Source: Escherichia phage EcNP1. Taken from it: DNA of 64,000 nucleotides. Below, in pieces: positions 14,458-55,185 of the stretch. Position numbers and translations under genes: made by a program. The DNA lies in sequence record NC_054910.1. One strand, 5' to 3'. Position 1 is the first letter of the stretch. Every line of letters starts with the position of its first letter. The notes beneath the pieces are model-generated. The model was given only the letters and a program-made list of their open reading frames with translations, searched no databases and was not told where the DNA came from.

Positions 14458-14775
14458 TTATTTCATATTATTAAAATATTCTTCTGCGATTTCGTCGTTA
14501 TCATGGTAAACTTTAGAAGACAGTTTAACATAACCTTCAGCAGTGAACATGTTAATCACAACATTTACAGTATACCACTGACCATCTTCATTACCCATTA
14601 CTGCGTAAGTTTCAAACATCGGATGATCAGGACCGATAACTTTAATATCATTCACTGTACGACCGAAATCTTCTGAAACGCATTTCATAAAGAAGTTGAA
14701 CAGTTCGCCGTAATTATCCATTTCATTCTCCAAGTTGTTTTTCTGTATCAGTAGTTGATAGTTGTATAGTACCAT
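14458..14775 (-). CDS. hypothetical protein
   Basis: track ORF 105 aa; a GTTTAC-N17-GTACTAT promoter overlaps the first ATG, so the likely start is the internal Met (MDNYGELF...) with GGAG SD, giving 87 aa. Confidence 0.5.
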   Translation of the reverse strand: MVLYNYQLLIQKNNLENEMDNYGELFNFFMKCVSEDFGRTVNDIKVIGPDHPMFETYAVMGNEDGQWYTVNVVINMFTAEGYVKLSSKVYHDNDEIAEEYFNNMK

Positions 14776-14927
14776 GGAAGAACAGGGATGTAAACAGTTT
14801 TGTGAAAAATTTTTTAAAAAGTTTTAGGGAATTCTAGGGAAGGGAGGGGCAATTAAAGGATAGGATAATATATTATAAAGGGTAGAAACTAAATGATGCT
14901 TAGAGAGGTCCAGAAAGGCCTAGATAC

Positions 14928-14953
14928 CAAAAAGCCCTATCATTTAGATAGGG
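14928..14953 (-). terminator. rho-independent terminator
   Basis: CCCTATC-N5-GATAGGG hairpin followed by CUUUUUG on the minus strand, downstream of the 14962 gene. Confidence 0.55.
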
Positions 14954-14961
14954 ATTTAAAA

Positions 14962-15525
14962 TTATTTATCTAGTTTAGTTATTATAGCTTCTGCGGCAGC
15001 TTTTAGCTTAGATGCAGTGTTAATACGATTTTTAATTTCAGTATACGCATCGCCAAGAACATCAAGGCTATCAGAATAAACACTTACACTATTGCGTTCG
15101 CTATTTGAAATAAAACCTTTAGTTTTACGATCAAAATCGGTGTACACGTCTTGAAGATCACGGGCAGCCTTCTTTGCATCATCCAATGCATCAAGAGCTT
15201 TATTCAAAGCATTAACATATTTTTTAGTGTCAAACATATTCTTAGAAATTTTAACAGGTGCACGTTCAGGAGTAGCTAAGGCAGATTTAGGAACATGAGC
15301 GCCAGATGCCAATTTCTTAGAAATTTTGAAAAACGCTTTATTGAATTTATTTTCTTGACTCATCGTAAAAGAACTATTATCGATGTTATACATTTCAATA
15401 GCTTTAGCTTTCCACTTAAGAAAATCGCCACGGTCTTTTGGGTCTAATTGAAAGAATACTTTAGTAAGATCTGCTTCAGACGGTAATTTTGCTGCTTCGG
15501 TCAAAAATTCGGCATAGGTTTTCAT
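14962..15525 (-). CDS. internal-protein-like protein
   Basis: 187 aa beginning MKTYAEFLTE|A, the IP capsid-targeting motif; AAGGA SD. Confidence 0.6.
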   Translation of the reverse strand: MKTYAEFLTEAAKLPSEADLTKVFFQLDPKDRGDFLKWKAKAIEMYNIDNSSFTMSQENKFNKAFFKISKKLASGAHVPKSALATPERAPVKISKNMFDTKKYVNALNKALDALDDAKKAARDLQDVYTDFDRKTKGFISNSERNSVSVYSDSLDVLGDAYTEIKNRINTASKLKAAAEAIITKLDK

Positions 15526-15612
15526 TTAAAATCCTTGAAATAATTTATCGGTTGGTTATTAATTATTTATTACTTTGTTATTATCCGCAACAGCATTCTC
15601 TATGTGATTCAA

Positions 15613-15643
15613 ACTAAAAAGCCCCAACCTTTCGGTCGGGGCT
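15613..15643 (-). terminator. rho-independent terminator (copy 1 of duplicated element)
   Basis: minus RNA GCCCCGACC-GAAA-GGUUGGGGC then UUUUU; 33-nt block identical to 16169..16199. Confidence 0.7.
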
Positions 15644-15650
15644 AAGAATG

Positions 15651-16094
15651 TTATTTGATTTGTTTAGCAGACCAAATGCGGTCTTTAATAATTTTTTGGA
15701 TGTCTTCAACATACTCTAGGTCATGAGCATGTGGGTTGTCTTTGAAACTATAAGCACGGGCTAACTTTTGGCCTTCGGTTTTGATTACTAAAAGCTCTTT
15801 AAGGATAGCTTCATATTTAGCGATAATTCCTTTAACAATATTTTTTTCTTGTGCAGCTTTAGGATCTGCTTTAGGAGCAGGTTTACCGGAAGGTTTTTCG
15901 AAAGCCGCACCAGTAGCAACCAGGCTTTTCCAGGCGGTGGTAACATAGTTACCCACAAAGCCTTCAGCTCTCATATCGTCGTAGAACTTGTACCTGGATT
16001 CGTCAGAAGCATCTTTATAAGAATATTTACCAGCTTTAATAGCAGCAGTTGCTACAGCGCGAACATCTGAAGCGGATGCTTCATTTAACACCAC
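15651..16094 (-). CDS. internal-protein-like protein, N-terminal capsid-targeting motif in a different frame
   Basis: track ORF starts at GTG; 29 nt upstream an SD+ATG opens MKSYAQF then stops; one extra T in the TTTT run would give MKSYAQFLNEVVLNEAS... Confidence 0.5.
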   Translation of the reverse strand: MVLNEASASDVRAVATAAIKAGKYSYKDASDESRYKFYDDMRAEGFVGNYVTTAWKSLVATGAAFEKPSGKPAPKADPKAAQEKNIVKGIIAKYEAILKELLVIKTEGQKLARAYSFKDNPHAHDLEYVEDIQKIIKDRIWSAKQIK

Positions 16095-16161
16095 TTCATT
16101 TAAAATTGAGCATATGATTTCATCTTATTTCCTGTTTTAATTCGTGATTTAATACACTACT

Positions 16162-16169
16162 ATATTTAT
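16162..16169 (-). promoter_or_regulatory. T4-type late promoter TATAAATA
   Basis: TATAAATA on minus strand about 38 nt upstream of the ATG at 16123, abutting the upstream terminator. Confidence 0.5.
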
Positions 16170-16199
16170 ACTAAAAAGCCCCAACCTTTCGGTCGGGGC
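16169..16199 (-). terminator. rho-independent terminator (copy 2 of duplicated element)
   Basis: identical hairpin plus U-run to 15613..15643. Confidence 0.7.
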
Positions 16200-16200
16200 T

Positions 16201-16511
16201 AAGCCTTGCGGCAACCTTGTCGGGGTTCCACCTGCTAAGGCAAGTGTTTGTACGAAACGCCGGGATTTGAACCCGGTTATTAAGCAGTTGACGCTACTCA
16301 ATATTTTTAAAAGGCCATATCTCGACCATATCCGAACGTTCCGTCAAAAACGCTACTCGGCTTACGGCAAAGATATTTCCTCGAATCGATAATTCGGTGC
16401 GCCGTTTCTGCTGTGATGTAAGAGGGCATCAACAAATCATAAAGATTTATTAACGCAATTCCTTACCCAGGGAACATCAGTCCGACGACTTACCGGTAGC
16501 GACCCGGTTTC
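16201..16511 (-). ncRNA. putative small stable RNA region downstream of tRNA cluster
   Basis: about 310 nt without credible ORF between the 16512 stop and the terminator; contains a tRNA T-arm-like CCGGG-UUCAAAU-CCCGG; position matches T4 species 1/2 RNAs. Confidence 0.35.
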
Positions 16512-16862
16512 TTAATATTCTTTTAAAGCATCAATTTGTTCACGGCGTTTACGCCATAAATCAATTGCTTCATACGCAGATTCAGCATTTCGAATTGGAC
16601 GGCATTTATATAAAGACTTGTGATTTTGATATTGTGTAGATAACGGAATTTTATCTAAAAGGTCTTTACGTTCAAAATATTCGTAACCATCTAAACCAAA
16701 TGAACGATTTTTGAGAAATTGCCAATGACCATATTCGTTTTCGACATAAACATAATCTGCATGCTGATAAAGTAAATTAATTACACGTTCAGAAATAACA
16801 GTGTCATTATGATTAAAATAGAATGTTAAATCATGAACTACTAAATAAACATTACCTTTCAT
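16512..16862 (-). CDS. hypothetical protein embedded in tRNA region
   Basis: 116-aa ORF; GAGGAAA SD directly after tRNA-Arg. Confidence 0.55.
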   Translation of the reverse strand: MKGNVYLVVHDLTFYFNHNDTVISERVINLLYQHADYVYVENEYGHWQFLKNRSFGLDGYEYFERKDLLDKIPLSTQYQNHKSLYKCRPIRNAESAYEAIDLWRKRREQIDALKEY

Positions 16863-16876
16863 ATTTTCCTCACTTA

Positions 16877-16952
16877 ATTGGTCGAGGCAGTAGGGATCGA
16901 ACCTACGACCTAGGACTTAGAAGGTCCTTGCTCTTCCTTCTGAGCTATGCCT
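16877..16952 (-). tRNA. tRNA-Arg (anticodon UCU)
   Basis: hand-folded 76-nt cloverleaf, loop CUUCUAA, T-loop UUCGAUC, encoded CCA. Confidence 0.85.
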
Positions 16953-16956
16953 CGGA

Positions 16957-17031
16957 TTTGGCGGACGTGATAGGATTCGAACCTATAACCAATCGCTTAA
17001 CAGGCGATCGCTCTGCCATTGAGCTACACAT
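16957..17031 (-). tRNA. tRNA-Asn (anticodon GUU)
   Basis: hand-folded 75-nt cloverleaf, loop CUGUUAA, T-loop UUCGAAU, encoded CCA. Confidence 0.8.
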
Positions 17032-17035
17032 CCAA

Positions 17036-17122
17036 ATTGGTGGGGAGTGATGGAGTCGAACCACCCGAGTCGCAATGACAATGGATTTACAGTCCACACC
17101 GCTACCTCTACGGAATAACTCC
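17036..17122 (-). tRNA. tRNA-Tyr (anticodon GUA)
   Basis: 87 nt, class II with long variable arm, loop CUGUAAA, acceptor GGGGAGU/ACUCCCC, encoded CCA. Confidence 0.8.
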
Positions 17123-17131
17123 CCAAATTAA

Positions 17132-17206
17132 TTTGGTGGCCCTGGGTGGAATTGAACCACCATCTGGCGATTATGAGTCGCTTGCTTGAACCTTCCAGCT
17201 ACAGGG
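17132..17206 (-). tRNA. tRNA with anticodon CAU (Ile2 or Met)
   Basis: 75 nt, loop CUCAUAA, T-arm GGUGG-UUCAAUU-CCACC, encoded CCA; T4 carries a CAU Ile tRNA here. Confidence 0.8.
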
Positions 17207-17207
17207 C

Positions 17208-17283
17208 CTTGGTGCTGATTGACGGAATCGAACCGCCGACCTTCTCATTACAAGTGAGTTGCTCTACCTACTGAGCTAAATCA
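17208..17283 (-). tRNA. tRNA-Thr (anticodon UGU)
   Basis: 76 nt, loop CUUGUAA, encoded CCA. Confidence 0.85.
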
Positions 17284-17288
17284 GCAAA

Positions 17289-17378
17289 ACTGGCGGAGGC
17301 GATAGGATTCGAACCTATGAGTCGCCGGAGCGACTGCCGGTTTTCAAGACCGGTGCATTAAACCACTCTGCCACGCCT
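17289..17378 (-). tRNA. tRNA-Ser (anticodon UGA)
   Basis: 90 nt, class II long variable arm, loop CUUGAAA, encoded CCA. Confidence 0.85.
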
Positions 17379-17380
17379 CC

Positions 17381-17454
17381 AGTCTCCATACAAGGATTTG
17401 AACCTTGGACCTCCTGATCCCAAATCAGGCGCTCTACCAAACTGAGCTACACGG
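17381..17454 (-). tRNA. tRNA-Pro (anticodon UGG)
   Basis: 74 nt, loop UUUGGGA, T-arm CAAGG-UUCAAAU-CCUUG, CCA not encoded. Confidence 0.8.
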
Positions 17455-17464
17455 AGTAAATTAA

Positions 17465-17540
<76 letters not shown>

Positions 17541-17543
17541 AAA

Positions 17544-17630
17544 TTTGGTGCGAGAAGTGGGACTCGAACCCACAAGGAAATCATTCCGCAGCATTTTAAG
17601 TGCTGTGCCTTTACCAATTTGACCATTCTC
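17544..17630 (-). tRNA. tRNA-Leu (anticodon UAA)
   Basis: 87 nt, class II long variable arm, loop CUUAAAA, encoded CCA. Confidence 0.85.
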
Positions 17631-17631
17631 G

Positions 17632-17704
17632 CGCTGGGAATAAAGGACTCGAACCTTTGCATCCTGGAATCAAAATCCAGTGCCTTACCAACTTGGCTAA
17701 TTCC
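17632..17704 (-). tRNA. tRNA-Gln (anticodon UUG)
   Basis: 73 nt, begins UGGGAAUUAGCCAAGUUGGUAAGGCA as in T4 tRNA-Gln, CCA not encoded. Confidence 0.85.
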
Positions 17705-17803
17705 CAATTATTAACAAAGGCTCTCAAACAAGAACCCTTGATGATAGAGGGTATTAATCAGTGCGGTATGAGTTAATAATAACAAATAATTCTTAAAGCA
17801 TAT

Positions 17804-19126: not shown

Positions 19127-19811
<685 letters not shown>

Positions 19812-35148: not shown

Positions 35149-36695
35149 GTAACAATACATATCAGCACGTATCAAATGAATCAAAATATGTTAAATTCGA
35201 TCCTACTGGATCGAATTTTCCTAACACTGTTACGACAGTGCAGTCTGCATTATCAAAAATAAGTAATATCGGCGTAAATGGTATTCCTGATGCAACTATG
35301 GAAGTTAAAGGAATAGCAATGATTGCGTCAGAACAAGAGGTTTTAGATGGAACTAATAATTCTAAAATCGTTACGCCAGCTACATTAGCAACAAGGTTAT
35401 TATACCCAAATGCTACTGAAACTAAATATGGTTTAACGCGTTATTCAACAAATGAAGAAACGTTAGAAGGCTCAGATAATAATTCATCAATAACGCCGCA
35501 AAAACTGAAATACCATACTGACGATGTGTTCCAAAATAGATATTCGTCTGAGTCATCAAACGGGGTTATTAAAATATCATCTACACCTGCAGCTTTGGCC
35601 GGCGTAGATGATACTACGGCAATGACTCCATTAAAAACCCAAAAACTTGCAATAAAATTAATTTCACAAATAGCTCCGTCAGAAGACACTGCAACAGAAT
35701 CGGTGAGAGGAGTAGTTCAATTATCTACTGTTGCGCAAACTCGTCAAGGAACTCTCCGCGAAGGATATGCAATTTCCCCGTATACCTTTATGAATTCTGT
35801 TGCAACAGATGAATATAGGGGTGTTATACGTTTAGGAACACAGACTGAAATTAATAATAATTTGGGGGGTGTTGCAGTAACAGGTGAAACACTAAATGGT
35901 CGAGGAGCTACCGGTTCTATGCGTGGAGTAGTTAAATTAACGACGCAAGCCGGTATTGCCCCTGAAGGTGATAGTTCTGGAGCATTAGCATGGAACGCAG
36001 ATGTAATTAATACTCGTGGTGGACAAACTATTAATGGTTCTTTAAATTTAGACCATCTTACAGCAAACGGAATTTGGTCGCGTGGTGGAATGTGGAAAAA
36101 TGGCGATCAACCTGTTGCCACTGAAAGATATGCGTCCGAAAGAATTCCAGTTGGGACTATTATGATGTTTGCAGGTGATTCAGCACCTCCAGGTTGGTCT
36201 ATGTGTCACGGTGGAACCGTGTCAGGTGACCAATTTCCTGATTATAGAAACGTAGTTGGAACAAGATTTGGTGGTGATTGGAATAATCCTGGTATTCCTG
36301 ATATGCGAGGTCTTTTCGTCAGAGGAGCCGGCACAGGCGGTCATATTTTAAATCAACGAGGACAAGATGGTTATGGAAAGGATAGACTTGGCGTAGGATG
36401 TGACGGAATGCATGTTGGTGGTGTCCAGGCACAACAAATGTCATACCATAAACACGCCGGTGGTTGGGGAGAATATAACAGAAGTGAAGGCCCATTTGGC
36501 GCGTCAGTTTATCAAGGATATCTTGGAACTAGAAAATATTCCGACTGGGATAATGCTTCATACTTCACTAATGATGGATTTGAATTAGGTGGACCGAGAG
36601 ATGCTCATGGTACACTTAATCGTGAAGGATTAATTGGTTATGAAACTAGACCATGGAATATATCATTAAACTATATTATTAAAGTTCATTACTAA
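35145..36695 (+). CDS. 12: short tail fibre gp12
   Basis: 516 aa. Confidence 0.9.
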
Positions 36696-54051: not shown

Positions 54052-55185
54052 TTATGGATAGGTATAGATGATACCAGTTTCTAAAGCAGTTTTATGAATG
54101 ATGTATCCATTGCGCGATTCTTGAACATCAACTTCTGGATAGTCTTTCATCATCTTCTGAAGGGTGTAACGATGCAAGTAGTACTTACTATCTGGGTCGT
54201 CAGTTTTCCAATCTTTACCTTCTTCAGTCATTTTTTGGATTTCATCCATAACCCACCAACCGCACCAGATATAAGCTGAAGTACGATGTGGAAGAGGATG
54301 AACATAAGGCAATTCACCTTCTGGTTCCGGAGCAACTTTATCAGTTACCTGAACTTGACCTGTTGTTTTAACTGTTTTGCTATCATAGTCAGTTGCTGTA
54401 ACGACAGCAGTAACTTCAATAGTTTGACTTCCAACAGATGAGGTATCGATAGTATATACGTTAGTTGACCCTTCTACAGGAGAAGAATCTTTCTTCCACG
54501 AGTAAGTAATTTGTGCTGCGTCAGGTGCGCCAGTAACATTAGCAGTAAATGTAGCCGAAGCATCTTGCTGAACATTAATAGAAGGAGGAGTCAATGCAAT
54601 TTGTGGATTCATTGTCTTCTTATTAACTGTCAATGATACTTCATTAGAAGTAACTTCCTTTGCATCATCATAATCTGTCGCGGTTACTTGAGCTACACAC
54701 TTAATTTTTTTAACTCCGCTTGTAGTAGGAGTGTAATTGAATGTAGCACTAGTTGCTTCGCTCACAGGAGAACCATCTACATGCCACTGATACGTAGCAG
54801 ATGCACCTGATGGTTGAGAAGCTAAGGCAGCGGTAAATTCAACAGGAGTTCCAATTACTCCAGCTGAAGGACTATCAGGAGTTACAGCTAAGGTAGTTGT
54901 CTGTGTCTTATTTTGAACTGTGATAGTTGTAGTAGCTTCTGCTGTTTCAGCTTCAGAATCAGGAATAGTATTTGTTGCAACTACTTTAATAGTCTTTTGA
55001 CCGGCAGGTCCTTTTAATACATAATCAAAAGTTGCTGCTGATCCTTCTTGGGGAGCATCATCTACACTCCAAGCATAGGTAATAGTTCCACCTCCAGTTT
55101 CACCACTGGGTGTAGCAGTAAACTGCTGAGTCTGATCTATAACTCCAGTAGGTGTTTTAGGAGTTATATCAACTGTAAAAGCCAT
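54052..55185 (-). CDS. hoc: highly immunogenic outer capsid protein Hoc
   Basis: 377 aa, Ig-like repeats and conserved capsid-binding C-terminus; Ig domains diverge from T4. Confidence 0.9.
   Translation of the reverse strand: MAFTVDITPKTPTGVIDQTQQFTATPSGETGGGTITYAWSVDDAPQEGSAATFDYVLKGPAGQKTIKVVATNTIPDSEAETAEATTTITVQNKTQTTTLAVTPDSPSAGVIGTPVEFTAALASQPSGASATYQWHVDGSPVSEATSATFNYTPTTSGVKKIKCVAQVTATDYDDAKEVTSNEVSLTVNKKTMNPQIALTPPSINVQQDASATFTANVTGAPDAAQITYSWKKDSSPVEGSTNVYTIDTSSVGSQTIEVTAVVTATDYDSKTVKTTGQVQVTDKVAPEPEGELPYVHPLPHRTSAYIWCGWWVMDEIQKMTEEGKDWKTDDPDSKYYLHRYTLQKMMKDYPEVDVQESRNGYIIHKTALETGIIYTYP

Follow-up and report, generated by a model that had tools for sequence, protein, structure and literature searches.

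A missing T in an internal-protein-like gene of Escherichia phage EcNP1 places its capsid-targeting-type leader out of frame with the gene body

In Escherichia phage EcNP1 (NC_054910.1), the start codon and leader of an internal-protein-like gene lie in one reading frame and the body of the gene in another. This raises the question of whether the gene has been broken by a mutation, whether the sequence record has lost a base, or whether the two parts are joined or bypassed during expression. We analysed the locus within the whole 64,000-nucleotide stretch of DNA presented here (the window), which belongs to a Tequatrovirus. The results indicate that the feature is ordinary, namely a one-base deletion allele or a miscall, and that no new mechanism is involved.

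Layout of the locus and comparison with relatives

An earlier note, made from the letters alone, had described a late promoter, an AGGAAA Shine-Dalgarno (SD) sequence and an ATG (16123-16121) opening MKSYAQF and then a stop, with the long ORF continuing in the -1 frame from a TTTT run. Reading of the minus strand confirmed both parts of this description, the long frame being open from 16124 to 15651. The T run, which had been placed at 16100..16105, does exist, with actual coordinates of 16105-16102. The features of the locus are as follows.

16177..16200, minus strand: intrinsic terminator hairpin, AGCCCCGACC GAAA GGTTGGGGCT plus a T run, with a 10-bp stem of which 7 pairs are GC
16163..16170, minus strand: T4-type late promoter TATAAATA, a consensus match, 47 nt 5' of the ATG
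16128..16133, minus strand: Shine-Dalgarno AGGAAA, serving ATG 16123
16100..16123, minus strand: leader mini-ORF, MKSYAQF plus TAA (ATG 16123-16121, stop 16102-16100)
16102..16105, minus strand: run of four T (five in relatives), the site of the one-base deletion
15651..16103, minus strand: gene body, LNEVVLNEASASD...WSAKQIK, in the -1 frame relative to the ATG, ending at the stop TAA 15653-15651
16103-16094 and 16088-16079, minus strand: 10-nt direct repeat TTAAATGAAG, two copies 15 nt apart, encoding the duplicated LNE site
15841..15847, minus strand: A7 run, GAAAAAAAT, codons QEKN, intact in this gene copy
15620..15643, minus strand: repeat of the terminator hairpin, identical to the one at 16177..16200, directly past the stop codon (repeat family D1/D2)

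The TATAAATA element carries a late-promoter annotation in phage SA21RB, and the hairpin at 16177..16200 lies directly 5' of this promoter, at the 3' end of a stretch homologous to rnaC/rnaD. The AGGAAA of ATG 16123 is the sole ribosome-binding site in the region; its anti-SD duplex was -4.3 kcal/mol, compared to a median of -5.85 for the long ORFs of the window. After the ATG, the mini-ORF reads AAA TCA TAT GCT CAA TTT TAA, and alignment with intact orthologues showed that it corresponds to leader residues 1-7, Tyr4 and Phe7 included. The body frame, which reads ...ILNEVVLNEASASDVRAV... (the ORF listing begins at GTG 16094, giving 147 aa), encodes both L-x-E cleavage motifs and the mature protein. 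Each TTAAATGAAG copy reads TAA-ATG in the frame of the ATG. The second cleavage site, VLNE, derives from a 15-nt duplication of TTAAATGAAG... that some orthologues lack; orthologue P0014, for example, is without one 15-nt unit (MKSYAQFLNEASASD). The existence of orthologues with and without this unit indicates that the leader region itself is indel-prone.

We aligned six relatives across the start of the gene (Nami, F13076, HMD-9, ZJUN4, F25 and SA21RB). The promoter, the ribosome-binding site, the ATG and the first seven codons of the window were the same as in all six, and the run was TTTTT in 6/6 relatives and TTTT in the window. Each relative is annotated with a single 474-nt CDS from the ATG, equivalent to a 157-aa protein, and the intact ORF begins MKSYAQFLNE/VVLNE/AS, with two L-x-E protease sites. 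The earlier note had proposed that one extra T would yield MKSYAQFLNEVVLNEAS..., and the same sequence is present in these relatives. Its description of an internal-protein-like gene with a capsid-targeting N-terminus one base off also held, the orthologues having five T, a single ORF and a capsid-targeting-type leader.

Wider searches gave the same picture. None of the 387 phage records matching a 121-nt query centred on the T run was identical to it across the site, and the best three of these 387 showed exactly one gap against the window query. A tblastn search with residues 1-32 of the restored protein matched 194 records, and all 60 rows sampled at even steps down this ranking ran from residue 1 to at least residue 22 in one frame. 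A second query, representing a diverged subfamily, matched 490 records, of which 60 spread rows were inspected by their query start positions, as the coverage summary is blind to a shift at codon 7 (35/42 residues would still exceed 80%). Fifty-six of the 60 started at residue 1; the four exceptions were diverged Klebsiella phages, three matching from residue 4 and one from residue 16. An exact-pattern scan of IMG/VR returned 0 contigs with the four-T version and 2 with the five-T version, and a lookup by gene position for the same allele elsewhere gave no match. Full-length relatives in a collection of 5.8 billion proteins all start with the leader, in the variants MKSYAQFLNE, MKTYNEFLNE, MKTYNEFLMTE, MKSYAEFLTE and MKTYAQFLMTE.

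On the comparison with orthologues, which the earlier note had named as decisive (starts at the GTG without the upstream motif would speak against it), the orthologues all proved to start at the ATG with the motif. The 146-aa product from the second GTG is exactly QCQ57116.1 / YP_010068046.1 of Escherichia phage EcNP1, and an exact-protein lookup placed this truncated protein on record from one contig only. The gene is carried by roughly 470-490 phage genomes and is intact in about 96% of them. As judged from these sequence comparisons, the four-T state is confined to one genome.

Gene identity and genomic setting

The restored protein of 157 aa matched PHROG 2280, a family annotated with unknown function, at E = 1.7e-54 over profile positions 1-172 of 178. 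When searched by itself, the body matched at E = 1e-48, beginning at profile position 8. A Pfam search of the restored protein returned no domain. The AlphaFold model was all-helical with a mean pLDDT of 74, and consisted of three N-terminal helices modelled with confidence, followed by a linker rich in Pro and Lys and then a long helical hairpin. Foldseek found no match below E = 1 in the PDB; in BFVD, it returned two uncharacterised close homologues and one weak match to an uncharacterised phage protein (E = 0.017). We found no literature naming this protein.

The leader is the informative part of the gene. Its pattern, MK[ST]Y[AN][QE]FL..E, was found in the restored ORF and in all full-length orthologues, and the restored leader has Tyr4, Phe7, Leu8 and Glu10. 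In T4, IpII and IpIII carry the leader MKTYQEFIAE (PMC8442874). IPIII needs no more than its first ten residues to be packaged; positions 4 and 7 are important for targeting and positions 8 and 10 for processing, and gp21 cleaves after L/I-x-E (PMC9026906). The restored protein contains two such cleavage motifs, FLNE (residues 7-10) and VLNE (residues 12-15), at which cleavage is predicted. This leader is in frame with the mature protein in every relative examined, and in the window it is not translated in that frame.

In a six-frame translation of the window, the shorter pattern MK[ST]Y..F was expected about 0.05 times and observed 4 times. All 4 matches head minus-strand ORFs of internal-protein type, at 16123, 15525, 10430 and 9348, and this excess indicates that the leader motif is not there by chance. 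One of these ORFs is the immediate neighbour of the broken gene:

14962..15525, minus strand: intact gene of 187 aa, MKTYAEFLTEAAKLP... (MKTYAEFLTE...), with the same leader type and belonging to PHROG 2280

By BLASTP, this neighbour has only the leader in common with the restored protein, and no exact TATAAATA occurs within the 80 nt 5' of it. T-even internal proteins are a diverse, non-essential set with only the leader in common (PMC3012670, PMC12373910). Taken with the late promoter and the leader, the gene is probably, by analogy with these proteins, a leader-bearing accessory late gene of T4-like phages whose product would be packaged in the capsid and injected.

The window is collinear with T4 in the order tk, regB, ipIII, e, tRNAs, ipI, 57B, gene 5 and head genes, and a ten-gene tRNA cluster lies just upstream of the locus. 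T4 has no gene at this position, where only a 284 bp spacer separates rnaC from e.8. On one side, window positions 16168-16512 are 95.7% identical to T4 rnaC/rnaD; on the other, positions 14702-14953 match the T4 sequence adjoining e.8. Since both flanks match T4, the pair of leader-bearing genes amounts to an insertion of 1.2 kb relative to it. That the pair is bounded by repeats suggests a cassette-like gain through recombination at regulatory repeats.

Further observations were made around the locus. Terminator hairpins lie at 14935-14953, 15620-15643 and 16177-16200 on the minus strand, one ending each leader-bearing gene, and the two identical ones (15620-15643 and 16177-16200) sit within a 71-nt repeat. 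Between the rnaC/rnaD stretch and tRNA-Arg there is a 116-aa ORF (16512-16862, minus strand), whereas in T4 rnaD abuts tRNA-Arg without such an ORF. An Rfam search of 14800-17800 identified only tRNAs, and the rnaC/rnaD stretch was unmatched.

Translation of the four-T allele

If the product of the intact gene behaves like T4 Ip1-3, its leader would direct it to the prohead core and would then be removed by the gp21 protease, which cuts after L-x-E; the mature part would be injected alongside the DNA. The proposed sequence of events in EcNP1 begins with the loss of one T from the T5 run at codons 7-8 by replication slippage. Translation from the sole ribosome-binding site would now give the heptapeptide MKSYAQF and then stop. 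Ribosomes restarting there would meet ATGs abutting stops, TAA-ATG twice, in the wrong frame: after the TAA at 16102-16100, the first ATG reads MKWC and a TAA, and the next reads MKHPLQMFAL and a stop. Such restarts would channel ribosomes away from the body.

It could be argued that the GTG start is real, and that a leaderless cytoplasmic protein of 146/147 aa is made by restart after the seven-codon leader ORF. GTG 16094 and GTG 16091 lie 5-8 nt past the TAA, within reach of termination-reinitiation, and GenBank annotates the 146-aa form. However, neither GTG has SD pairing upstream (anti-SD duplexes of +1.7 and +0.4, respectively), both are inside a local hairpin, restart would be favoured at the TAA-ATG sites of 16102-16097 and 16087-16082, which are in the wrong frame, and no orthologue starts in this way. 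We consider this explanation highly unlikely. Independent GTG initiation as the main route was rejected on the missing SD and the competing TAA-ATG restarts. Any GTG-started product would be missing the first ten leader residues, among them Tyr4 and Phe7, the positions by which IPIII is targeted to the capsid (PMC9026906), and so should not reach the prohead.

The earlier note had also raised slippage-dependent expression. In such a case, ribosomes shifting by -1, or RNA polymerase slipping, at the T run would fuse leader and body, and the full-length packaged protein would still be produced at a set level. The UUU beside the stop codon is a context able to raise spontaneous frameshifting, and a modest hairpin begins 4 nt after this UUU codon. 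However, the zero-frame codons CAA UUU UAA do not make up an X XXY YYZ heptamer; a -1 slip would put tRNA-Phe on AUU with a first-position mismatch, and a +1 slip would meet AAA UGA. Relatives with an intact frame have the hairpin as well, and the 106-nt region folded no better than shuffled sequences (z = -0.29; 72/200 shuffles folded as well). The sole SD lies more than 20 nt upstream of the would-be frameshift site. Transcriptional slippage needs a long A/T homopolymer, of about 8 or more, and four T are far below the run length for appreciable slippage by RNA polymerase. In all the relatives examined the protein is encoded in a single frame, and the two-frame arrangement was found in none of the relatives in the aligned set, the 387 records, IMG/VR or the spread samples. 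Programmed frameshifting and transcriptional slippage were rejected on these three grounds: the arrangement is not conserved, has no slippery site and is without significant structure. The claim of slippage-dependent expression was not upheld, as the two-frame arrangement is not conserved and comes without a slippery site or a clear stimulatory element; of the explanations considered, we regard it as extremely improbable.

With restart and recoding set aside, the one-base loss is left as the preferred reading, and the allele is, as read from its sequence, null for capsid targeting, or would at best give a trace of unpackaged product. Internal proteins are non-essential (PMC8442874, PMC12373910), and a phage would tolerate such an allele on hosts without the matching defence.

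Origin of the missing base and comparison with known systems

The nearest relative of the window in the phage collection was Escherichia phage vB_EcoM_Nami (species Tequatrovirus ecnp1), with 99.89% identity in an alignment spanning the full 64,000 bases. The two differed by 56 substitutions, mostly transitions and some in clustered patches. In the broken gene itself, the only differences from the Nami orthologue were the missing T and one synonymous change at 15995. A base-by-base comparison over the 64 kb revealed 5 indel events:

2418: G/T rearrangement, non-coding
16101-16105: missing T, the sole frameshifting indel
about 19408: 9-nt in-frame change in tandem-repeat copy number, unit ATGGAACAT
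35204-35207: 4-nt loop inversion in a palindrome, length kept
about 54663: 3-nt in-frame CAT repeat change

The repeat change near 19408 is within a gene annotated as RNA 2',3'-cyclic phosphodiesterase / 57B. At 35204-35207, in a region annotated as a short tail fibre gene, the palindrome GATCC-TACT-GGATC reads GATCC-AGTA-GGATC in the comparison with Nami, a change of template-switch type. The CAT change near 54663 falls in a 1131-nt minus-strand gene that carries the Nami annotation 'capsid and scaffold protein'.

A sequencing or assembly error would mean that the run in the phage is truly TTTTT and the 157-aa gene intact, and that the consensus dropped one T. A one-base change in homopolymer length is the commonest kind of consensus error, the only difference from Nami in the gene besides the missing T is synonymous, the broken form comes from a single record, and about 96% of carrier genomes are intact, so that purifying selection normally keeps the gene. 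Against this, the window contains about 360 A/T runs of at least five bases (about 300 of five, 52 of six and 5 of seven), and among these no other difference in homopolymer length from Nami was found, not even in the 57 runs of 6-7 bases, where an error-prone platform would be the first to fail. No other ORF was broken either: among the 129 ORFs of Nami that measure at least 240 nt from stop to stop, 2 had changed boundaries in the window, namely the present gene and one altered in its untranslated upstream part only. The internal-protein-like gene is the only coding sequence disrupted in the 64 kb relative to Nami. Clean homopolymers and a single disrupted ORF make the assembly look accurate and a lone error less likely. 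The gene class is moreover dispensable and broken in other phages as well. We therefore regard an error in the record as possible but rather doubtful.

The other in-gene indels were in-frame (9 nt, 3 nt and the 4-nt swap), as expected of real variation filtered by selection, and the lesion is in a gene class known to be dispensable, with the same gene broken elsewhere too. From sequence, these results favour a true mutation by replication slippage, in an accessory gene that the phage can do without, as the probable explanation, and we infer that the deletion is present in the phage itself, beyond the record. The lack of further decay fits a very recent mutation or an artefact alike.

Damage to the same gene in other phages was found at the A7 run (15847-15841), which is frameshifted in both directions. 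Phage F26 has A6 at this run and a 111-aa product. The -1 outcome, ...AQEKISLKEL...KSF and stop, occurs in F26, SfPhi01 and several ENA/Logan assemblies with different sequences, and the +1 outcome (A8), ...AAQEKKYC and stop, on three other backgrounds (P0007, P0018 and P0019). About 17/468 records covered less than 80% of a 76-aa query spanning the run; of the three low-coverage records listed, one matched in two pieces and two matched only from residue 34. Occurrence on several backgrounds marks the A7 run as a recurrent hot spot of mutation or sequencing. The gene is truncated in phages that have been isolated and propagated, F26 and SfPhi01 among them; this indicates that its loss is tolerated, and, as far as these sequences tell, the gene may be non-essential on permissive hosts.

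A further reading takes the T5 run (codons 7-8) and the A7 run (codons 93-95) as mutational on/off switches, by which T-even phage populations would maintain genomes with the injected protein alongside genomes lacking it, much as a contingency locus would, here in a lytic phage. If true, such mixing could be useful where the protein imposes a cost or some host defences sense it. The T-run allele and the A7 alleles in both directions allow such a switch and do not require it, and we consider it very unlikely.

Whatever the origin of the four-T state, the 146-aa 'hypothetical protein' that GenBank/RefSeq starts at a GTG masks a frameshifted gene whose intact product has the leader and is probably injected, and which comes from a family that is widespread (about 470-490 T4-like genomes) and has the hallmarks of T4 internal proteins. 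By analogy with Ip1-3, we infer for the intact protein packaging, processing, injection and a role against host defence. The GmrSD type IV restriction enzyme that is inhibited differs between Ip1, Ip2 and Ip3 (PMC12373910). With these proteins lately recognised as specific inhibitors, the natural knockouts gain interest: EcNP1 against Nami (99.9% identical), and the A7 alleles, could serve as isogenic-like pairs for finding the host defence that is countered.

Among known systems, T4 Ip1-3 are the closest. They have in common with the present gene the ten-residue leader pattern, with Tyr4, Phe7, L/I8 and Glu10 conserved (MKTYQEFIAE compared to restored MKSYAQFLNE; PMC8442874, PMC9026906), the L/I-x-E cleavage motif and the late promoter, and also a small and apparently dispensable gene in the variable tRNA / e / ip region. 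They differ in the mature part, which shows no sequence similarity (Ip1-3 are mutually dissimilar there too), and in locus, since the present gene lies between rnaC and e.8; in the present genome, moreover, the leader is out of frame, and for the present protein packaging, processing and any anti-restriction target are putative. The further T-even ip genes of Repoila et al. 1994, in what PMC3012670 and PMC12373910 cite of that work, are alike in being unrelated ORFs with only the targeting leader in common, and in forming polymorphic cassettes between conserved regulatory sequence. The mobile regulatory cassettes of T4-type genomes (PMC2839356), by which genes are shuffled, resemble the 1.2-kb insertion, with its genes bounded by near-identical terminator hairpins; a difference is that here the repeated element is a terminator, with a late promoter after one copy. 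The lesion itself is like the Streisinger-type frameshifts of T4 (rII and e), in which one base lost from a short A/T run leaves a truncated, non-essential product. A one-base loss of this kind is the textbook example of spontaneous frameshifting in T4.
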